Shown here one piece after another: positions 3,438 through 39,777 of a stretch of DNA of 43,319 nt. The DNA is taken from sequence record PX907400.1. One strand, written 5' to 3'. A program made the position numbers and the translations under genes. The stretch comes from a phage. The notes beneath the pieces are model-generated. The model saw only the letters and a program-made list of their open reading frames with translations. It ran no database searches and was not told the origin of the DNA. The first letter of the stretch is position 1; each line of letters opens with the position of its first letter.

Positions 3438-3440
3438 GAA

Positions 3441-3467
3441 AAAGGCCCCTCTCGGGGCCTTAGTTTT
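3441..3467. terminator. bidirectional rho-independent terminator between convergent genes
   Basis: AGGCCCC-TCTC-GGGGCCT stem-loop flanked by T-runs on both strands. Confidence 0.6.
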
Positions 3468-10227: not shown

Positions 10228-10424
10228 TAAAGCCCCGCCTTAAAGCGGGGCGCTAGTCCTTATCATTTAAACATAGAAACGGCGTAATCTCAGTAAACCA
10301 GTTACTTTTTACACAAGCAATAGAGTAAGGCCCTTCCGAACGCGTCAGCGCAACTACACTCGGACTTAACGTCCGGCTCCGTTACCTGCCGCGCCGCGGT
10401 CGCTTGTTCATACTTCACAAGCTC
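10228..10424 (-). ncRNA. putative sRNA or structured leader (copy A of a duplicated element)
   Basis: Conserved promoter then ~110-nt block shared with 21655..21752; GCTTGT...ACAAGC hairpin and a covarying hairpin; ends at GCCCCGC...GCGGGGC stem. Confidence 0.3.
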
Positions 10425-10430
10425 AGGTGG

Positions 10431-10459
10431 AGCTTAGCACATTTTTGGTGAAAAGTCAA
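10431..10459 (-). promoter_or_regulatory. sigma70-like promoter (-35 TTGACT, 17 nt, extended -10 TGcTAAGCT)
   Basis: Identical -35 and -10 hexamers and spacing at 21759..21787; palindrome AACTATTCGAATAGTT overlaps the -35. Confidence 0.45.
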
Positions 10460-10521
10460 CTATTCGAATAGTTTATTCCAACATTTACAATTGAGTGGAA
10501 TAACTGGAATAATCACAGGCA

Positions 10522-10544
10522 CTAAAAAGCCCCTTTCGGGGCTT
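10522..10544 (-). terminator. rho-independent terminator after the Ig-like gene
   Basis: AAGCCCC-GAAA-GGGGCTT stem followed by TTTTT on the minus strand. Confidence 0.55.
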
Positions 10545-10548
10545 CGGT

Positions 10549-11010
10549 TTATTCTGGCTTAGTAACCTTCGCCGCTTTACTGACGGCCTCTACCCCATCG
10601 GCATCGGTGACTTTAACGAAGTATTCACCGACAGCATTAACCGTCAGAGACAAAGCCTCTTCTGGGGCGTTTACCACTTCCTTGCCGTCTTTGTACCAGG
10701 TCAGTACACACGGCGCTTTACCTGCCTTAACTTCGACGGTGATGGTGGCGCTACCGTCGACCAGCTCGGTGTCTTTCGGTTGCACCGAGAAATACACGTC
10801 ACCTGCATCCGCCAGATACGGAATTTCATAAAGCATGCCCGCCGCGGGTAACGCAATACCGGTTTTATCTGCAAACGGCATATCGTCTTCGGGTGTACCG
10901 AGTACACTTTCATCATCAATAAACACCACGTTCTCTCCAGAGCCAGACACGCGGGCGTACTGGACTACGCGACGTGACGGTACATCAGTTACTTTGAAAA
11001 AGCCCATCAT
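10549..11010 (-). CDS. Ig-like domain protein
   Basis: CVLTWYKDGKEV...GEYFVKV resembles an I-set Ig-like domain. Confidence 0.5.
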   Translation of the reverse strand: MMGFFKVTDVPSRRVVQYARVSGSGENVVFIDDESVLGTPEDDMPFADKTGIALPAAGMLYEIPYLADAGDVYFSVQPKDTELVDGSATITVEVKAGKAPCVLTWYKDGKEVVNAPEEALSLTVNAVGEYFVKVTDADGVEAVSKAAKVTKPE

Positions 11011-20102: not shown

Positions 20103-20133
20103 ATTCTGTCTCCCCTCTCGTTCGTGTAAATGA

Positions 20134-20162
20134 ATAGTAGCCTATTATATCTTAGTGTGCAA
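20134..20162 (-). promoter_or_regulatory. promoter (-35 TTGCAC, 17 nt, -10 TACTAT) with AATAG-N4-CTATT operator
   Basis: Same architecture as 982..1010 and 21460..21489. Confidence 0.4.
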
Positions 20163-20169
20163 GTAAATT

Positions 20170-21234: not shown

Positions 21235-21425
21235 GTGTTATCCCCTTTGAATTTAAAATTGTTGCCGATGAGTGTTAAATTATCGCGTAAGGCGAAACCA
21301 GGTTTCTTTCTTACCAGACCCCATACGTCGACCAGATTATCCTCGTCATACTCGTTCTCGTCCTGCAACACTAATACATATTGTTCTCCGCGTTTAGTTT
21401 TCACCAACTGACCTTTCTTAAACAT
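21231..21425 (-). CDS. hypothetical protein
   Basis: ATG 21425 with GAGGAG Shine-Dalgarno (track gives GTG at 21434); first gene after the promoter at 21460..21489. Confidence 0.45.
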   Translation of the reverse strand: MFKKGQLVKTKRGEQYVLVLQDENEYDEDNLVDVWGLVRKKPGFALRDNLTLIGNNFKFKGDNT

Positions 21426-21459
21426 AACCCTCACTCCTCTGTCTCGTTTCGATAAGTGA

Positions 21460-21489
21460 ATAGTATCCTATTATGTTGGGGGTGTGCAA
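21460..21489 (-). promoter_or_regulatory. promoter (-35 TTGCAC, 18 nt, -10 TACTAT) with AATAG-N4-CTATT operator
   Basis: Same architecture as 982..1010 and 20134..20162. Confidence 0.4.
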
Positions 21490-21544: not shown

Positions 21545-21752
21545 CGAAACGAACGTGGTGCCGAAGGCACCAAGAGTGAGTGAGTGAGCTTGCGGTTCTA
21601 ACCTACGGCAAATCAGTAACTTAGATATTTAGGCGGGAATTACAATAGACTTTGGCCCTTCCGAATGCGCCAGCGAGCCTCACTCCACACGTCAAGACGT
21701 GCTCGTTTCGCCTGCCGCGCACCGCGGTCGCTTGTTCATACTTCACAAGCTC
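21545..21752 (-). ncRNA. putative sRNA or structured leader (copy B of the duplicated element)
   Basis: Conserved promoter then ~110-nt block shared with 10329..10424; ends near the GGTGCC-GAAG-GGCACC hairpin. Confidence 0.3.
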
Positions 21753-21758
21753 AGGACG

Positions 21759-21787
21759 AGCTTACCATATTTCTTAGTAAAAGTCAA
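21759..21787 (-). promoter_or_regulatory. sigma70-like promoter (-35 TTGACT, 17 nt, -10 TAAGCT)
   Basis: Identical hexamers and spacing to 10431..10459. Confidence 0.45.
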
Positions 21788-21892: not shown

Positions 21893-22063
21893 ATGACTAT
21901 CAATGAAGTTGCAGAATTAATCGGTGTCACCCGCCAGACAATTAATAACTGGATTAAGAGTGGAAAGTTTCCAGATTGCGGCGTTAAAGTAATGGGCCGC
22001 CGGATGCCGGGAACATTCGACCGTAATAAAGTTGAAGCGTGGATTAAGGAGAACGTGAAATGA
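21893..22063 (+). CDS. AlpA-like HTH transcriptional regulator
   Basis: MTINEVAELIGVTRQTINNWIKSGKFP HTH; GGAGAA Shine-Dalgarno (track ORF starts at TTG 21803). Confidence 0.6.
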   Translation: MTINEVAELIGVTRQTINNWIKSGKFPDCGVKVMGRRMPGTFDRNKVEAWIKENVK

Positions 22064-24983: not shown

Positions 24984-25012
24984 TTGATATGTGAATAGTA
25001 CCATATTAATTA
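24984..25012 (+). promoter_or_regulatory. promoter/operator-like element (TTGATA + GTGAATAGTACCATATTA)
   Basis: Degenerate copy of the operator in the divergent region; direction uncertain. Confidence 0.3.
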
Positions 25013-25027
25013 TTTTAGAAAAGCCCA

Positions 25028-25056
25028 TTGACACGTGAATAGTTCGCTATTATAGT
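25028..25056 (+). promoter_or_regulatory. sigma70 promoter (-35 TTGACA, 17 nt, -10 TATAGT) with AATAG-N4-CTATT operator in the spacer
   Basis: Near-consensus hexamers; same architecture at 27724..27752 and 31430..31458. Confidence 0.55.
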
Positions 25057-25087
25057 TAACCCATACCAAACGAGAGGAGAGAAACAA

Positions 25088-25606
25088 ATGTTAGACCAAT
25101 TCTTAAAATTACTGGAACGTTTCGTAGTTGCGCATGAACTGATTGCCGCTAACAGCGAGAAACCACAAAACGGCAAATCAGTAGGTGAATTAACCGTTGA
25201 TGTTGCGGTAACTGGGGTAGAGACAGTTAAAAAAGAACTGGCTAAAGCACTTGAAGAAGTAGAGAAGGCGAAAGAAATCCCGGTTGAAGGTGAAGACATC
25301 GTCGACACTAAACCAGCAGAAGAAGAGAAGCCGAAACGCAAGCCGCGTAAATCTAAAGTAGAGGAACCGACGCCAGAACCGGAAGAGAAGGAAGAAGTAG
25401 ATTACCAGTCTCTGCGTGACCAGATTCAGGCTATCGACGATGCAATTAATGAAGGTCCGAGCGACGCCGCGTGCGATGATTCCGATGAACTGCTGGAAGA
25501 GTTCACCGGTAAGAAGATGAAGATTGCCGCGATTAAAGACGAAGACCTTGCCGAATACCTGGAACGCCTGACGGCAATCAAGAACAAGTATTTCGAAGAA
25601 GAATAA
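25088..25606 (+). CDS. acidic early protein of unknown function
   Basis: 172 aa rich in E/D/K; first gene downstream of the promoter at 25028. Confidence 0.5.
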   Translation: MLDQFLKLLERFVVAHELIAANSEKPQNGKSVGELTVDVAVTGVETVKKELAKALEEVEKAKEIPVEGEDIVDTKPAEEEKPKRKPRKSKVEEPTPEPEEKEEVDYQSLRDQIQAIDDAINEGPSDAACDDSDELLEEFTGKKMKIAAIKDEDLAEYLERLTAIKNKYFEEE

Positions 25607-27723: not shown

Positions 27724-27752
27724 TTGACACCTGAATAGTTAGCTATTATAGT
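27724..27752 (+). promoter_or_regulatory. sigma70 promoter (-35 TTGACA, 17 nt, -10 TATAGT) with operator
   Basis: Near-identical to 25028..25056. Confidence 0.55.
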
Positions 27753-27805
27753 TCTAATCACTGGCCGGGCAGTTCCCGGAGTAAACTGAAAAGCGAGAAA
27801 TCACG

Positions 27806-31180: not shown

Positions 31181-31461
31181 CCCCGGAAGGCAAAATACAG
31201 AAATACGCAAAAGAGCGATTCGAGGCCATTGGTGGCCTCGTTCGTAAGCTCTCCTACGAAGGACGTTCGGGTGCCCCTGACCTGCTGGTAATTCTCCCCG
31301 GCGGCATAGTCTGGTTCGTCGAGGTGAAGAAAGACGAAAACACGAAGCCAGACCCGCACCAGATACGTGAGCACGAGCGGATGCGTAAACGTGGTGCGAA
31401 TGTTTTTGTCGTTGGTTCGTTTAAACAGGTTGACGACCTAATAGCGAGCTATTATAGTTAG
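31177..31461 (+). CDS. VRR-NUC domain nuclease
   Basis: PDLLVILPGG...FVEVKK PD-(D/E)XK core. Confidence 0.6.
   Translation: MTPEGKIQKYAKERFEAIGGLVRKLSYEGRSGAPDLLVILPGGIVWFVEVKKDENTKPDPHQIREHERMRKRGANVFVVGSFKQVDDLIASYYS
31430..31458 (+). promoter_or_regulatory. sigma70 promoter (-35 TTGACG, 17 nt, -10 TATAGT) with operator, embedded in the 3' end of the VRR-NUC gene
   Basis: Same architecture as 25028 and 27724. Confidence 0.5.
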
Positions 31462-34228: not shown

Positions 34229-34257
34229 AAAAGGCCCCGTTTGGGGCCTTAGTTTTC
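34229..34257. terminator. bidirectional rho-independent terminator
   Basis: AAGGCCCC-GTTT-GGGGCCTT with T-runs on both strands; overlaps the tailspike stop. Confidence 0.6.
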
Positions 34258-37209
34258 TTTATCTTCTAGTGCTGCCAGCCTCTTCTCGAACTCGCGCATC
34301 TTCTTACGCTGATAGGCAATCTCTATGAAGAACATCTGGTCCGCCCTAACTCCCCATCTGCCGCCGGGAGGGGATACTTGTACAGTCTGGCCATCTTCAT
34401 CAATATCATACGCAGCTTCAATTGAGTCGTAGCACAAGAAAGCATATTTACAACTGGTAGAATCTTTCTCCATAAGCCCATGGTTGACCAAGATGTCTCG
34501 CACATCTTGGGCTATCACACCGAAGTGTATCCTTGCAGTGTCACCCTTGATTGCTAGGCTTTCAAGCCACTTAAAAGATATTACATGTATATCTTCCCAT
34601 GCGGTAAGGAGTTGTCCCTCAATTTCCTCTTTGTTCGTCTTAAGTGTACCATCAGACGTGTTTATCGTACCGGTGGTCGCGTACACCGTAGTCCACCTAT
34701 TAACTGCCGAACCTAAAGACACTCGCGAGTCTAAGTAAGGAAGGAAATTGTTGTATGAGTAGAAGCCTCCTGACGCATACATAATAGCCCTGTTAGGCTT
34801 TGCATGGTTTGCCCCGTACAGTTGCAGCAACGCACCATCGGAACGGGATGCACCATCACCACCGCTAACTATCAGTCTTTGAGCCGATGGGGTTTTAGTG
34901 GGGACTGTTTTTGAAATCAGCCCGTAATCACCATCAAACCGTGCGCGCACGGCAGACTGTTGTGTACCATCGTATTCCAGCCCCGTTACATGCAGGGAGT
35001 ACACGCTTACATCATTGTCAAACGTTAAAGGTGCTTCTACATGGCGTACACCATCTACCCCCATGGCGACAGGTATTGTACGGTTAGGAGTTGCTCCGTA
35101 TTTGAAATCACGTGATACGTACGGGTGGTCTTCAATCTTTATCCGGTAGCTATATAAGTCAGCCGGATGCCCATCATGTTTGTACCATAACCTCGCACTG
35201 TTATCCCCTATGCTCCAGGGAGAGAAGAAGTCTTCCCCACCAAAGATATAGTACAACCAGCCATCTTTAACACAGACCGAGCCGACGCCGACAGCAGAGT
35301 TAACGATATGACCCTGGTATATTTGGTCGGTAATATTAAACCACTGAACATCATCTAAAGATGAAGGCCAGGACGACACATTAACTTTGCACATAAAGGT
35401 CCTCGGATACGAACCTTCATAGCGGCTGTCCTGCTCGCCACCTTCCCACTCACCAAAGGCACGTTCTGTACCAAAGATGTAGAGATAGTCACCTACTTTA
35501 GCGAACGGAAGATTGGAGTGATGTACATTGTTCGGAAATCGCAAGTAGCTCCAGTTTTGCCCAGAATCGGTGCTCATCGCCAGTGTAGAGCCAGGGGAAG
35601 TGGGTAATGTGCCGCGTGTGGTAAGGTATAACACACCACCATAACTTTTCACACACGGCTCAGAAGCGTTATCAGCGTATGCCTGAGCGACAGTGCGACG
35701 AACGAATACGCCAGGATTGTCATACACGTTACTAAAATACAAGACACCGAGACGCCTAGGGGACACATCGCCGTTGTGATAGCCGACAGCGATAGTGTAG
35801 TTAACATCATCTATAGCCGCAAAACTATGTGTCTCCGTGACACACAAATCAGCGTTAGGGGAGTATGCTACCCCAGGCAATTCGGTAATTTCCCACGGGC
35901 TGTCCCAGAATCGCGTTGCGAAGTTCCAGGTAACACCCGCATTGTTTATGGTGGAACTCGCCGGGCTTGAGAGCGTAACAGTGAACGTATTTCGGTTAAT
36001 TATAGACGAAACCGTCATATTACCCGATACGCCAGTTGCCGATGTATTAGAGAAGTTAACCGCATCTCCTGCTTTTAGGCCATGATTTTCTATGACAATG
36101 GTAGCAGTAGTGGAGCCAGAACTAATAGTTATTCCGCCGGTTGGGTGTCTAAAATACGGCATTGGGCGTGACCAAAGTTCTGCCTTCTTCATCCGCATAT
36201 TAGATAAGTAGCGGGTTTCTATAACTGCATATAATCGGTTGCCGCACGTACCCATGCTCATGCAGTGGTAGTTAACTCTGTCCGTAGGAACACTAGCATT
36301 ATAGTCAGCATGGATTGGAGTCAACCACTCAGGCATTGACCAAGTCTGCCCGTCGTCTCCAGAGCGAACCCAAGCTACATGTAAGTTTTGAACACCATGT
36401 CGTTCGCCCGCCATAAACGGGGCGTAAATAACATGGTCGTAGACGAAAGTTTTATCCTGCGTCCATGCGTTGTAGAACGGGGCATCCGTCACCTTAGTTA
36501 GTGAGCCGTTAAAGAAGCCATCAGCTACATAAGTAAGCGGTTGCCCGGCTACGCGCTCGTAAACGAATGCAGCATTCTTAAATTTACTAATGTCAGGTAA
36601 TTGGGAAACTTTATAAGTCAAACCCCTGCCGTCTATAATCCAATTGTTGGGGGAAGCTGCTAATACATTAAAAATAGATTGAGTATCATCAGTTACGCCG
36701 TCACCCACGGCGCCCCATGCGCGCGGGTCGTATTCGTCCTTCCATCGCGCCACATGTAAATCTGGGTACAGAATTGCACCGTTTACATCAGATATTTGCT
36801 GCCGCAGTATGACCGACCCGACAGGCTGCCACGCCCCATCTGCCACGCCACCGGTGGACTGCGGAGAAGATGACGCCGGGATAATTTTTGGTAGAGCACC
36901 CAACCAATAGTACCAATCCCCGTCACCGCCAGAGGACGACGGCCACAAAACTGCGGTGTTTCGGTCGTTAGCGGATAGTGTACCGCCTGACGTGAAATCA
37001 AAATCTGCCAGTTTAAAACCAGCATCACGCAACACGGCAGGTAACGTCTTCTGGGTCTGTCCAGTAACCTGATTTGTCGCGTAATCAATATCGGCACCAC
37101 CGGCGACACCGCCGGATTTGCCAGTGATAACCTCGGCCTCGAAAATCTGATGTTTCTTGGCGGTTTGTAAATCCGCCAGGCTTAAAACGTCACCGCATCC
37201 GCTTGACAT
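34249..37209 (-). CDS. tailspike with sialidase-like Asp-box beta-propeller and C-terminal intramolecular chaperone (peptidase S74-like)
   Basis: Asp-boxes SGDDGQTWS and STDSGQNWS; C-terminal SDGTLK cleavage-type motif and chaperone-like tail; AGAGGA Shine-Dalgarno. Confidence 0.7.
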   Translation of the reverse strand: MSSGCGDVLSLADLQTAKKHQIFEAEVITGKSGGVAGGADIDYATNQVTGQTQKTLPAVLRDAGFKLADFDFTSGGTLSANDRNTAVLWPSSSGGDGDWYYWLGALPKIIPASSSPQSTGGVADGAWQPVGSVILRQQISDVNGAILYPDLHVARWKDEYDPRAWGAVGDGVTDDTQSIFNVLAASPNNWIIDGRGLTYKVSQLPDISKFKNAAFVYERVAGQPLTYVADGFFNGSLTKVTDAPFYNAWTQDKTFVYDHVIYAPFMAGERHGVQNLHVAWVRSGDDGQTWSMPEWLTPIHADYNASVPTDRVNYHCMSMGTCGNRLYAVIETRYLSNMRMKKAELWSRPMPYFRHPTGGITISSGSTTATIVIENHGLKAGDAVNFSNTSATGVSGNMTVSSIINRNTFTVTLSSPASSTINNAGVTWNFATRFWDSPWEITELPGVAYSPNADLCVTETHSFAAIDDVNYTIAVGYHNGDVSPRRLGVLYFSNVYDNPGVFVRRTVAQAYADNASEPCVKSYGGVLYLTTRGTLPTSPGSTLAMSTDSGQNWSYLRFPNNVHHSNLPFAKVGDYLYIFGTERAFGEWEGGEQDSRYEGSYPRTFMCKVNVSSWPSSLDDVQWFNITDQIYQGHIVNSAVGVGSVCVKDGWLYYIFGGEDFFSPWSIGDNSARLWYKHDGHPADLYSYRIKIEDHPYVSRDFKYGATPNRTIPVAMGVDGVRHVEAPLTFDNDVSVYSLHVTGLEYDGTQQSAVRARFDGDYGLISKTVPTKTPSAQRLIVSGGDGASRSDGALLQLYGANHAKPNRAIMYASGGFYSYNNFLPYLDSRVSLGSAVNRWTTVYATTGTINTSDGTLKTNKEEIEGQLLTAWEDIHVISFKWLESLAIKGDTARIHFGVIAQDVRDILVNHGLMEKDSTSCKYAFLCYDSIEAAYDIDEDGQTVQVSPPGGRWGVRADQMFFIEIAYQRKKMREFEKRLAALEDKEN

Positions 37210-37221
37210 ATAGAGTCCTCT

Positions 37222-39777
37222 TTAATTAAAACCATTGCTGAATCCGTCGGAGAAACCGCTGCCGTATGGCGCGACGCCGTCGTATTTGTAGAATCCGTCG
37301 TCATAGTTGTAGCCAGTAATCTTGACCGTGCGGTCGTCGCCAGGGTCGATTGAAGAAACAACTATCTTCTGAGCATTATGCCTTGCTTCGTTGCCGAATG
37401 AAAACTCAGTTTTTAGTGCGCTATTCCCCGTGTAGATTGCTTCTTCCGGCGCGGAGAGCATAATCACTTCGCGGTCGTGGCTTCCTTTGATAACGGAGAT
37501 ACTCTGTACAGAGCCATCGCGCTTCTTGAGGATGATGGAGTGGTCATCACCCGGAGTAAACGTAACCGGCTGTGACAGTGTCAGCGTAAGCCCATTAACG
37601 GCAGCAACATAGCCGTCCTGTGGCGCAATACGCGAGCCTTTAACTACGCTGATTACACCGCCTGGAGTAGCGAGCGCACCTTCTTCGGTAGCTTCAAACT
37701 CTACGACAACTTTACTTAACGCATTGCGCTGATAGCGACGCCACGCCAGCCAATACGCCTGCTGATAGTTACGTACGCCCTTCGATTCGTATTCCTCTGT
37801 ATTTGCCCCGAGTTCTTCCGGGATGTAAATCGTTTCCCGTACGTTAGTATCCGGGTCGATGTATGAGAACGACAGGCTATCGTAGGTTGTCGAATCGTTG
37901 AACGTGCGGGTCCATTTCTCGGTACCGGTAGTTTTGCTGCGGTGGGTGAACACCATTTCAGGCCCCGCGACAGGACGGTCGAATCGCAGCATAATATCCG
38001 CACCTTTACGGTACGCAGTACAGAAAACGGCTTCCGCTATGGTCTGGACGATGTCCTGCATGGTTGTGTCATAGTCGTCGAACGTGTAGCAGAATTGCCC
38101 TGCTAATTCACTTCCGAAATAGGACTCAATTTCTTCCTGCACAGCAAGTAACTTGTCCATGTTTGCCGTTGTCAGTTCCAGATTGCCTACTGCGGGGTCG
38201 CGCGCCAGTCGAATTAGAGATTGTACGGCTTGCGTGTTCGGTGTCATTACTGTATCGAATACCCCATTGCCGAGGTATTTGTAACACATCTCGGTTGCAA
38301 TCATGCGCAGTTCCGGGTTGTCTATGCTGGCGGCACGCGGCGTCTGTTTACGGGTGCAATGTACGGTAGTTCTGTTGCCGTAGTGTGGAGTGGTGTCCAG
38401 AGACTGCCCATACAGGTTAATGAATGTTATCTCGTCGCTTACCGTACCGTCGTAGTCTTTATCGAAATTAGTTACACGACGCATACGGGCGCGGAAACGG
38501 GATGCGGTCGGCAATTGCCCGTAGATAGACGTACCGACGTAATCCGTATTGTTGCCTGTAATTGTGGCCTGTACCGTGTAAATATCGCTCAACGGGTTAC
38601 GCTGAGAATCAATCATCTGGTACTGGAGTTCCACCGTTACACTGGTGCGGTTATAGCCTCCGTCGTATTTGTAGAGGCCGTTCTGCCCGGCAACGTTAGC
38701 AAGTACCCGGTCAACCTCTCCGCGCACCATGTAATACCAGTCCGTAAGAGATACGTCATAGGTGTTGCTTGGGCCTATAAACGTATCCGAACGCTCTGTA
38801 AGTGCGTAAGTCTCTCCGTTATTAAGGTTGCCCCAGTTACCTATATCCCCGACGTACAACCGAACCTCAAAGTCGTCGACGTATAAAACTTCAAACGAGC
38901 CGTTCAGGTTAGTGACGTCCTTAACGTCGAAATTGCTCAACACTGCGACATCACCAACACTAAGAAACTCAGAAAAAGCAGAGTCGCCTGACGGATCATA
39001 GATGTAGCCAGTGTTTGAAATACGTTTAGCTGTGCCGTCGGCGCTTGGGTTAGCTCCGATGTCGTTTGGCGCTTTCAGCACAATACCGTCAACGTCGTCG
39101 TTGGAGTATGTCACATAGAGTTTCTGGTCAATGACGTCGCCGATTTGTAGTTGCGGAGATGCGGTGTTGTTCGGTGACGTATACGGCGCATATACGGCAA
39201 CAGATGAACCTGTGATGTCGCTTATCAGGGTGTCGCCCTCTGTGACGCCATCAGCCTCAATATGCAGATGTCCGCGCCCTGCGTCATAGTACGAATACTC
39301 CAGCAAAGCACCAGTGGAGTTGAACGCCTTATACGTCTGCATCAGGTCATTAGGGATTGTCTGCACAGTCCCGCAGATGTCATAGGAGCGCTCGTAAGGG
39401 CGTGGTTTGTTTGAGCGGTCTGTGAGGCTGTTATTTGGTGATGTTGTCTGGTTGTTAGTCGCCGTGTAGTTGGCGTTGGCGGCCGTGTTCAGGCCAAACA
39501 ACTTGGCGATTGGCTTAAGGATAAAACCAAACACCTTACTAACCGCACCGAGCGCCCCGCTACCCGCACCCTCAATAATGTGGTACACAGCGTCTTCATC
39601 TTTAAGCGCGTCGAAGTCGTCGGTGACATCAGTATCATCGCCAATCTCGCCCAGGTAGACGCGCACCGGCACGCCGTCCTGGATACGGTTAACGACAAAC
39701 TCCATCGGCATCCCGACGTGTTTTGTACGGTCAAAAGCGCCATCAGCGTTTCGCGTGTAGTGCAGGATTATCGCCAA
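37222..39777 (-). CDS. tail tip / host specificity protein (gpJ-like)
   Basis: 851 aa ORF after the NlpC/P60 gene in lambda-like order; TTG start with GGAG Shine-Dalgarno. Confidence 0.5.
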   Translation of the reverse strand: MAIILHYTRNADGAFDRTKHVGMPMEFVVNRIQDGVPVRVYLGEIGDDTDVTDDFDALKDEDAVYHIIEGAGSGALGAVSKVFGFILKPIAKLFGLNTAANANYTATNNQTTSPNNSLTDRSNKPRPYERSYDICGTVQTIPNDLMQTYKAFNSTGALLEYSYYDAGRGHLHIEADGVTEGDTLISDITGSSVAVYAPYTSPNNTASPQLQIGDVIDQKLYVTYSNDDVDGIVLKAPNDIGANPSADGTAKRISNTGYIYDPSGDSAFSEFLSVGDVAVLSNFDVKDVTNLNGSFEVLYVDDFEVRLYVGDIGNWGNLNNGETYALTERSDTFIGPSNTYDVSLTDWYYMVRGEVDRVLANVAGQNGLYKYDGGYNRTSVTVELQYQMIDSQRNPLSDIYTVQATITGNNTDYVGTSIYGQLPTASRFRARMRRVTNFDKDYDGTVSDEITFINLYGQSLDTTPHYGNRTTVHCTRKQTPRAASIDNPELRMIATEMCYKYLGNGVFDTVMTPNTQAVQSLIRLARDPAVGNLELTTANMDKLLAVQEEIESYFGSELAGQFCYTFDDYDTTMQDIVQTIAEAVFCTAYRKGADIMLRFDRPVAGPEMVFTHRSKTTGTEKWTRTFNDSTTYDSLSFSYIDPDTNVRETIYIPEELGANTEEYESKGVRNYQQAYWLAWRRYQRNALSKVVVEFEATEEGALATPGGVISVVKGSRIAPQDGYVAAVNGLTLTLSQPVTFTPGDDHSIILKKRDGSVQSISVIKGSHDREVIMLSAPEEAIYTGNSALKTEFSFGNEARHNAQKIVVSSIDPGDDRTVKITGYNYDDGFYKYDGVAPYGSGFSDGFSNGFN

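Follow-up and report, generated by a model that had tools for sequence, protein, structure and literature searches.

We found that phage sequence PX907400.1, analysed here over its full 43,319 nucleotides (nt; the window) and representing a complete or near-complete genome of the genus Kagunavirus (subfamily Guernseyvirinae), carries two minus-strand copies of a portable unit in which a putative sigma-70-type core promoter is fused to a structured noncoding RNA. Each cassette consists of the core promoter (TTGACT, a 17-nt spacer ending in TGn, and TAAGCT) and about 107 transcribed bases, and the two copies (A and B; Table 1) head operons of 7–12 kb. The comparison with related phages supports what an original prediction had proposed from the letters of the window, namely a duplicated promoter followed by a putative structured leader or small RNA (sRNA)-like RNA with compensatory change. 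As far as sequence can tell, the element probably controls how far or how stably these long operons are transcribed.

The duplication is real and lies far beyond chance, yet its identity, first put at about 85%, amounts to 78% across the cassette (116 of 148 aligned columns). It is unevenly distributed: the first 46 transcribed bases agree at 92%, the distal hairpin at 57% and the 3′ part at 85%. The 100-base flanks on each side of the two copies are unrelated; they are 48–50% identical in a forced global alignment, which we take to be background. The shared promoter pattern (TTGACTTTT-N6-AAATNTGNTAAGCT) occurs in the window only at these two sites and in none of 100 shuffles; likewise, the 21-mer GCTTGT-GAAGTATGA-ACAAGC, noticed at the outset as common to both copies, is found exactly twice in the window and never in shuffles.

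The 1 kb around copy A shows 97.8% identity to Escherichia phage K1ind1 and is matched in 300 phage records with Escherichia coli, Salmonella and their relatives as hosts. According to the K1ind1 annotation, the position of copy A is bounded on one side by the terminator of a gene for a Hoc-like head-decoration protein and on the other by Rz/Rz1, beyond which genes for the scaffold, major head protein, adaptor, neck, tail terminator and tail protein follow. The cassette thus precedes the scaffold and capsid genes of a minus-strand late operon which runs in the window from 10207 (the Rz ATG) down to about 3466. Copy B is located where transcription diverges, with a small helix-turn-helix gene on one side (plus strand, 21893–22063) and on the other a minus-strand operon comprising, by the same annotation, small early genes, two holins, an endolysin, terminase, portal and head morphogenesis genes. 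We found nothing that ties the element specifically to spanins or lysis timing, for which a test had been proposed; it heads the whole Rz-scaffold-capsid-neck-tail operon and, at copy B, another operon.

Table 1. Coordinates of the two cassettes, their parts and associated signals (positions in the window unless another phage is named).
Feature	Position	Strand	Description
Copy A cassette	10318–10459	minus	-35 hexamer to CUAUUG
Copy B cassette	21643–21787	minus	-35 hexamer to CUAUUG
Core promoter PA	10431–10459	minus	-35 TTGACT 10459–10454; 17-nt spacer ending TGc; -10 TAAGCT 10436–10431
Core promoter PB	21759–21787	minus	-35 TTGACT 21787–21782; 17-nt spacer ending TGg; -10 TAAGCT 21764–21759
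HP1, copy A	10402–10422	minus	GCUUGU-GAAGUAUGA-ACAAGC
HP1, copy B	21730–21750	minus	same sequence as in copy A
Long bulged hairpin, copy A	10336–10399	minus	P2a CCG/CGG, bulged C, P2b with two G-U pairs, P3 CAG/CUG, P4, internal loop, P5 CGGAC-GUUAA-GUCCG
Long bulged hairpin, copy B	21661–21727	minus	P2b GGUGCGC/GCGCAUU, P3 CAG/CUG, P4 CGA/UCG, P5 CACGU-CUUG-ACGUG
Tail, copy A	10318–10335	minus	AAGGGCC-UUACU-CUAUUG; end of duplicated block
Tail, copy B	21643–21660	minus	AAGGGCC-AAAGU-CUAUUG
Leader A, 3′ half	10252–10317	minus	AU-rich; not duplicated at site B; conserved as well as the element itself
Leader-A hairpin	10232–10251	minus	GCCCCGC-UUUAAG-GCGGGGC, then UUUACUUAUC; 24 nt before Rz ATG (10207)
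Leader-B hairpin	21556–21572	minus	UGGUGCC-UUC-GGCACCA; (CUCA)3 before, C-rich G-poor stretch after
Upstream repeats, site A only	10473–10512	minus	TTATTCC twice (10512–10497) and inverted TGGAATAA (10480–10473)
Perfect palindrome	10459–10472		ACTATTCGAATAGT; abuts copy A -35 with one base in common; absent at copy B
Second, operator-type promoter	21460–21489	minus	TTGCAC, 18 nt, TACTAT; family D1, pair I2
Operator-family sites	24984–25013, 25028–25057, 27724–27753, 31430–31459	plus	
Operator-family sites	978–1024, 20120–20166, 21446–21481		
Different early leader, K1ind1 (L065)	34985–35400		structured, 260–330 nt
Different early leader, Jersey (L066)	38860–39240		structured, 260–330 nt

Predicted fold and covariation of the putative leader RNA

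The predicted architecture comprises a 5′-terminal hairpin (HP1), a gap of 0–2 nt, a long bulged hairpin built of helices P2 to P5, and a tail. In both copies the structured RNA begins 2–3 nt past the inferred start of transcription from the respective promoter (PA or PB), which for copy A lies near 10424. P2–P5 includes about 22 pairs, bulges and an asymmetric internal loop, and the two arms of P2 are 60 nt apart. The CCGCGG-rich segments pointed out earlier in both copies are present and form the base of this long hairpin. The two hairpins said to differ at the same position (CGGAC-GTTAA-GTCCG in copy A, CACGT-CTTG-ACGTG in copy B) are also as described, and their interpretation as compensatory change is borne out by comparative data; however, they are merely the tip of a bulged hairpin of about 64 nt whose lower helices covary too. 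The internal loop reads GGAGC/AGUGUA in copy A and GGAGC opposite GAGUGUA in the common variant of its type. The tail, AAGGGCC-N5-YUAUUG, is conserved and predicted to be unfolded. We rejected a third small hairpin within it (AGGGC...GYUCU), the energies being no better than those of shuffles for all 23 of 23 tail variants.

Relatives of the element were gathered by four IMG/VR scans and several GenBank searches, which yielded 69 instances (43 distinct sequences) from two phage genera, Kagunavirus and Jerseyvirus. In an alignment of the 43 sequences fitted to the structure model, whose figures hence lean towards structure, standard pairs occupy 95.5% of the pair cells, compared to 81.7% after shuffling and 30–41% when the 3′ partners are slid by 1–3 columns. 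The covariation score equals 0.333, with 0.115 for shuffled alignments (0 of 500 reach the observed value) and 0.018–0.057 for slid ones, and 16 of the 28 pairs are altered on both sides. Conservation and covariation outside the promoter hexamers, whose absence the original prediction named as one part of its refutation, are present in homologous phages. The same key events are visible in an unfitted MAFFT alignment. From such a plain alignment of 30 distinct sequences of the window's type, RNAalifold recovered HP1, P2 (as a helix pairing the CCGCGG region with CGCGUUCGG), P3 CAG/CUG and P4, and six divergent variants folded singly each gave the same architecture.

The changes are found along the whole long hairpin. 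At one pair of P2b, 21 sequences have C-G, 17 have U-A and three have A-U; P4 appears as GUAAC/GUUAC, GGAAC/GUUCC or GAAAC/GUUUC; and P5 as GGGAC/GUCCU, CGGAC/GUCCG, CACGU/ACGUG, GGUGC/GCACU, GGGGC/GCCCU or GUGCC/GGCAC, with GGGCGU/ACGCCC or GGGCGC/GCGCCC in Jerseyvirus. G-U pairs fill 121 cells (10.7%), including two conserved adjacent ones in P2b, and because of them the sense (minus) strand pairs better than its complement (95.5% vs. 85.8%). This asymmetry speaks for a minus-strand RNA and against a DNA palindrome. It is covariation that makes the case for structure, the thermodynamic support being modest by itself. We consider these comparisons to show a real, strand-specific and conserved RNA fold, predicted to occupy the very 5′ terminus of the transcripts.

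The gap between HP1 and P2 is GA in Kagunavirus and 0 nt in Jerseyvirus, where HP1 (UACGCU-UUC-AGCGUA) holds the same position with a wholly different sequence. The bulged C of P2, the two G-U pairs, the junction G/GG, the internal loop (UGAAGC opposite UAGCGUAAC in Jerseyvirus) and the tail are near-invariant within each type and alike between types; the base of P2, its bulge, the G-U pairs and the tail are near-invariant across the two genera.

The 5′ strand of P2 by itself can form a local hairpin, CCGC-NNN-GCGG (10387–10399 and 21715–21727; five pairs in copy B), which excludes the long-range helix. In a single event, variant L026 retains this hairpin by a double change (CCGU-GUC-ACGG) that weakens P2. 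The local hairpin may act as a switch or arise transiently while the RNA folds during transcription.

Distribution and exchange of the element among Guernseyvirinae

The element occurs in two types. The K type, to which the window belongs (HP1 GCUUGU-N8/9-RCAAGC), is found in Kagunavirus and some Salmonella phages, and copy A was matched in 181 GenBank records, 179 of them at ≥90% identity. In the J type, typical of Jerseyvirus, the promoter is TAGACT/17 nt/TACGCT and the Jerseyvirus HP1 is followed by the same core (ACCGCGGNGCG...CGCNUUCGGAAGGGCC); its region was matched in 373 records, a total that includes partial matches from K-type records. At site A the element is present in essentially all Guernseyvirinae records searched, where it heads the late operon. 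An IMG/VR scan with the core pattern devoid of HP1 returned only Guernseyvirinae-type elements and a single chance hit (L069), which lies in GC-rich coding sequence. Over 25 distinct site-A loci, the intergenic leader was the least variable part of its 1.5-kb stretch, with a mean pairwise diversity of 0.02–0.045, compared to 0.05–0.16 for Rz and 0.37–0.63 for the Hoc-like gene.

Roughly one K-type record in four has a second copy, at site B (181 records gave 224 matched places). The model built from the element (R1), run on the complete K1ind1, K1G and Jersey genomes, detects the site-A copy only. Site B is occupied in these phages by a different leader, transcribed from a promoter with TTGACA, a 17-nt spacer and TAAGGT (in K1ind1) or TAAGTT (in Jersey). 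This leader shares with leaders A and B the tail motif GGGC(C)-RAGCU-NUAUU and a downstream segment (...CUGAUUU.GCCGUAG...), and may be a distant paralogue of the element. The internal-loop sequences of its hairpin in K1ind1 and Jersey resemble those of the element (CGAAAACGAGC...GAAGUGUUAGG), and it ends in a terminator-like hairpin of its own.

When site B of the window is aligned with K1ind1, homology to the early leader of the latter sets in again from CUAUU and rises to near-identity towards the first gene. For this reason, copy B is to be regarded as an A-like cassette that entered a different early leader by recombination. Since a site-B-type core was also detected within an otherwise site-A leader (locus L040), exchange has taken place in both directions and the core therefore behaves as an autonomous, interchangeable module.

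Promoters and upstream signals

The -35 hexamer TTGACT agrees with the consensus at five of six positions and the -10 hexamer TAAGCT, accompanied by TGn, at three of six (T1, A2 and T6); because of the latter, PA and PB remained below the threshold of a consensus promoter scan of the window. Among homologues, TTGAC(T), the TG of the extended -10 and TAAGCT are near-constant and the spacer is variable, the exceptions being TCGACT in K1ind1 and the hexamers of Jerseyvirus. The TTATTCC motif, repeated ahead of copy A and absent at copy B, is also found upstream of Jerseyvirus copies, and together with the inverted TGGAATAA it probably constitutes binding sites of a regulator. The half-sites of the palindrome ACTATTCGAATAGT are those of the operator family of this phage (family D1), in outward orientation. 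The combination of repeats and palindrome at site A suggests a regulated, factor-controlled late promoter.

An inverted repeat, AAGCTC-N5-GAGCTT, extends from the -10 hexamer to +5 in both copies (10419–10435 and 21747–21763), with invariant arms and a variable centre. Jerseyvirus has instead an exact repetition of its -10 hexamer TACGCT 3 nt further on, which coincides with the 5′ arm of HP1. These arrangements could reflect an operator, a sigma-dependent pause signal or chance. We give little weight to a pause caused by a repeated -10, which is exact in Jerseyvirus (TACGCT-ACC-TACGCT); the Kagunavirus counterpart, TGAGCT, has no A at position 2.

At least seven promoter-like sites (e.g., TTGACA, 17 nt, TATAGT) contain the palindrome AATAG-N3-5-CTATT in the spacer. 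The family looks like a common operator of a phage regulator, and it includes the promoter positioned between the leader-B hairpin and the first early gene (ATG at 21425). The same motif was listed as "phage promoters" by means of PHIRE in the genome paper of phage fBC-Eco01 (PMC9825357). The phages bearing it encode no RNA polymerase.

Leader hairpins and terminators

Leader A continues past the cassette with an AU-rich half whose mean pairwise diversity is about 0.023. It ends, as had been noted, in a GC-rich stem shortly before Rz (10251–10232). In Kagunavirus the site-A hairpin consists of eight pairs, seven of them GC, directly followed by UUUACUUAUC, and in the K type it looks like a terminator. 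As a candidate terminator, the leader-B hairpin is weak. A (CTCA)n tandem repeat ahead of it (21575–21588) has three units in the window and seven in locus L042, and the 130 nt past the hairpin are richer in C (26%) than in G (18.5%), as a Rho entry site would be.

Within the operons, terminator-like hairpins occur on the same strand after the portal gene (12112–12097) and after the capsid gene (7860–7839). Strong bidirectional terminators stand at unit ends (10544–10527 and 3461–3442). One bidirectional terminator (AAAAGGCCCC-loop-GGGGCCTT) is present three times in the window (3440–3467, 10524–10551 and 34229–34256) and marks the ends of the main transcription units. We considered a classical attenuator, based on alternative terminator and antiterminator pairing, and rejected it: the leader hairpins are wholly different among sites A, B1, B2/B5 and Jerseyvirus, and such a switch is unlikely because they change while the element stays the same.

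Comparison with known RNA families and regulatory systems

No Rfam family (release 15) matched the window at its gathering threshold, the best sub-threshold scores over the two leaders being 13–16 bits against thresholds of 35–55. The put regions of phage HK022 were matched by no family either, and Rfam appears to contain no put model. We did not find the element described in genome papers, in a time-course RNA sequencing paper on a Kagunavirus, or in the BASEL paper.

The closest functional parallel may be put, the factor-independent antiterminator RNAs (putL and putR) of HK022, which suppress terminators in cis with no protein factor and in dependence on the zinc-binding domain of the polymerase β′ subunit. 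In HK022 putL, two adjacent stem-loops are formed from the 5′ end of the transcript, with stem I at +3 (PMC9378689). Like the element, put is present in two similar copies per phage (most relatives of the window have one), in leaders just downstream of major-operon promoters, and consists of about 70–110 nt folded into two adjacent GC-rich, bulged stem-loops at the transcript 5′ end. The arrangement of two stem-loops about one unpaired base apart is shared by the element in broad terms only, as the stem proportions differ: its second hairpin is far longer than the first and is followed by a conserved, unstructured-looking tail. There is no detectable sequence similarity between the two, and the phages with the element are virulent siphoviruses, not lambdoid ones; a put-like activity is a conjecture.

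The lambda nut sites (boxA and boxB, acting with N) are similarly duplicated, conserved RNA signals in two operon leaders that combine a hairpin and a linear motif. In contrast to them, neither leader of the window contains boxA (GCUCUUUAACAA or CGCUCUUA) within three mismatches out of 12 (44 matches in the whole window, with 38 ± 6 expected by chance), and the hairpins are far larger than boxB. We recognised no N-like or other antiterminator protein among PHROGs and Pfam assignments of nine small early-operon and two divergent-operon proteins, most of which have no known function, nor in the annotations of K1ind1, Jersey and K1G.

The late leader of lambda, in which PR′, qut, the 194-nt 6S RNA and tR′ precede the lysis and morphogenesis genes, parallels the layout of site A: a promoter, a leader of about 200 nt and a terminator-like hairpin, then Rz/Rz1 and head-tail genes in one operon. 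Unlike in lambda, the conserved part is a folded RNA and not a DNA site in the promoter, the annotations of K1ind1, K1G and Jersey include no Q homologue, and the downstream -10 repeat is exact in Jerseyvirus only, the Kagunavirus sequence being devoid of the key A. Processive antitermination is also mediated by structured 5′ leader RNAs elsewhere. EAR is a leader RNA that allows read-through of several terminators. The conAn system of pLS20-type plasmids is another of this kind (PMC8191782). By description, to which the comparison is limited, both resemble the element as structured leaders of long operons on mobile elements; in contrast to it, they come from Gram-positive elements, and conAn needs a partner protein. 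Finally, the T7 early and lambda N leaders possess hairpins processed by RNase III, and hairpins at the 5′ end may act as stabilisers. These are similarly irregular, repeated, with a conserved internal loop and covarying stems, or placed at the extreme 5′ end; they differ from the element, which has two copies at transcript starts only and is conserved beyond the hairpin. Cleavage of the latter is hypothetical.

Several other resemblances proved to be misleading. GCGGCAG in P2/P3 and GGCGGCAGTTTA in the early leader of K1ind1 look by eye like the RfaH ops site (GGCGGTAGnnTG); they carry C in place of the essential T6, and we rejected them. The leader hairpin shares a stem (CCCCGC/GCGGGG) with the type I-E CRISPR (clustered regularly interspaced short palindromic repeats) repeat, but the flanks mismatch and the Jerseyvirus hairpin differs, so we ascribe this to chance. 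A mini open reading frame (ORF) starting from UUG 10 nt past a Shine-Dalgarno-like GGAAGGG has 1–10 codons with no conserved peptide, and the start is CUG in two Jerseyvirus variants. The best base-pairing match to other phage transcripts is a perfect 14-nt complementarity between leader B (21605–21618, minus strand; UACUGAUUUGCCGU) and 25170–25183 (plus strand) in the ORF 25088–25606. Most of the UACUGAUUUGCCGU segment is conserved in B-type leaders, and part of it in the K1ind1 and Jersey early leaders.

Possible functions of the element

We tentatively prefer the possibility, to which we would give less than an even chance, that the element is a cis-acting, put-like leader that modifies the elongating polymerase and so brings about read-through of the leader hairpin and of internal terminators. 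The nascent RNA would fold on leaving the polymerase. The sequence-constrained base of P2 and the tail would alter the elongation complex that made the RNA, directly or via a further factor, and the modified complex would then pass both the GC-rich hairpin of the leader and the terminators inside the 7–12 kb operons. The comparison with put refers here to how the element would work, not to membership in the put family. We favour this mechanism because two stems are laid out from +3, the element is coupled to a promoter and duplicated at the heads of operons, its core is autonomous and its unpaired positions are constrained in sequence; additional support comes from the terminator-like hairpins that follow the element, with UUUACUU at the one in leader A, and from the failure to recognise an antiterminator protein. 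The further-reaching proposal that it represents a new class of promoter-coupled antiterminator RNA, unrelated to put by sequence and acting in virulent siphoviruses on host RNA polymerase with no dedicated protein, is in our view rather doubtful. Under this proposal the RNA might also fold in two steps, with the local CCGC-NNN-GCGG hairpin forming first and later yielding to the long-range P2.

A number of observations weigh against antitermination or against parts of the evidence for it. Folding energies of single variants are no more than modestly better than those of shuffles (z-scores from +0.1 to -3.7). Model R1 gave no match in the HK022 genome at E≤10; conversely, a model of putL and putR (R2) found both put sites (E 1e-21 and 3e-19) and nothing at 10318–10425 or 21642–21753, although, being built from two sequences, it has a limited reach. 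The leader hairpin of Jerseyvirus is kept with no U-run, UUAGCGUAU following it, and is probably not an intrinsic terminator. Most relatives carry another leader at site B. The early genes have a proximal promoter of their own at that site, owing to which read-through from PB is not obviously needed. Salmonella phage SLMP1 (L043, 1464–1528) is deprived of the whole distal domain P3–P5 by a clean deletion between two ACGC repeats, with P2b capped by a tetraloop and HP1, the P2 base and the tail remaining. Internal terminators with partial read-through are common among phages devoid of antitermination systems, and we found no transcript mapping for this phage group in the literature.

Among the alternatives, a role in stability or processing of mRNA seems to us somewhat unlikely. 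HP1 would shield the triphosphate end and the long hairpin would serve as a processing site (e.g., for RNase III), setting the half-life or level of the operon mRNA. The position of HP1 2–3 nt from the inferred start in both genera, retained despite its wholly different sequence, is what such a function would predict, as is the location ahead of the most highly expressed late genes, those of scaffold and capsid; the irregular P2–P5, with its many pairs, bulges and asymmetric loop, resembles the RNase III substrates of phages. Yet a stabilising hairpin needs no conserved sequence, and the near-invariance of the P2 base, bulge, G-U pairs and tail goes beyond such a need. The element is also placed 100–300 nt upstream of the first ribosome-binding site, and the genome has just two such hairpins, at transcript starts and not between genes as in T7. 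It is less likely still that the element is a stand-alone noncoding RNA of about 190–260 nt, transcribed from a promoter of its own as far as the leader hairpin, that acts in trans as an sRNA or as a protein decoy or platform, expression of the downstream genes being incidental read-through. At site B, the separate operator-type promoter between the hairpin and the first gene makes promoter, element and hairpin look like a unit of their own, a layout repeated in the different early leader of K1ind1 (hairpin, then UUUAGUU). The whole leader A of about 200 nt is more conserved than the neighbouring genes and the K-type hairpin has a U-rich tail; Jerseyvirus hairpins, however, have no U-run. At site A the 24 nt between hairpin and Rz offer no room for a promoter, because of which the late operon must be transcribed through the leader hairpin. 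In addition, complementarity to other phage transcripts is not convincing, as matches were at chance level and the single best 14-mer has an expectation of about 0.1.

A signal acting at the DNA level, whether through operator palindromes surrounding the promoter or through a conserved linker favouring module recombination, is very unlikely. The inverted repeat spanning -10 to +5 in both copies, the palindromic nature of HP1 itself and the wide use of AATAG/CTATT operators by the phage would suit an operator, and the common tail GGGC(C)-N5-CTATT, at which homology to the other leader type resumes, would suit a recombination joint. On the other hand, pairing in P2–P5 is kept via double changes and G-U pairs (A-C mismatches on the other strand), which a duplex DNA site would not select, and the P2 arms are widely separated. 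We regard as hardly credible the last alternative, a small protein of 32–41 residues ending in ...AFGRAxxYC.... The statement that ORFs in the block are not conserved needs amendment, as a frame of 32–41 codons is nominally open in every variant examined (6/6), the frame that encodes AFGR is likewise open in all six and has GTG, ATG or TTG as a start in five of them, and some GenBank records annotate a hypothetical protein over the element; still, the frame is not gene-like. Its start and N-terminal half shift with 1-nt indels (GTG ...VKYEQ vs. ATG ...MNKRP), the Jersey start lies inside the distal hairpin, other candidate starts are within HP1, and no Shine-Dalgarno sequence is present. The two codons after GCC vary non-conservatively (I/K/E/G/V/L in the first, L/V/I/F/P/G in the second), the C-termini differ, and the conserved peptide is a mere translation of the most conserved RNA motif. 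Coding by the element is therefore unlikely.

Significance for Guernseyvirinae

We propose that the element represents a new RNA family within a familiar class, the phage leader RNAs, with a plausible link to processive antitermination. RNA-family annotation should replace the hypothetical protein calls made over it. The SLMP1 version constitutes a natural minimal element, ready for experiments. Phages of the subfamily Guernseyvirinae (Kagunavirus and Jerseyvirus) belong to the commonest isolates from E. coli and Salmonella and are used as therapy candidates and synthetic-biology chassis. The element heads the operon that encodes their capsid, neck and tail. If it functions as a stability or processing module or as an sRNA, it would still be a new RNA family in several hundred deposited genomes. 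Should it modify the polymerase, it would represent, to our knowledge, just the second family of factor-independent antiterminator RNAs in phages and would provide a small portable genetic part, i.e., a compact, transferable read-through unit made up of a promoter and about 107 nt.

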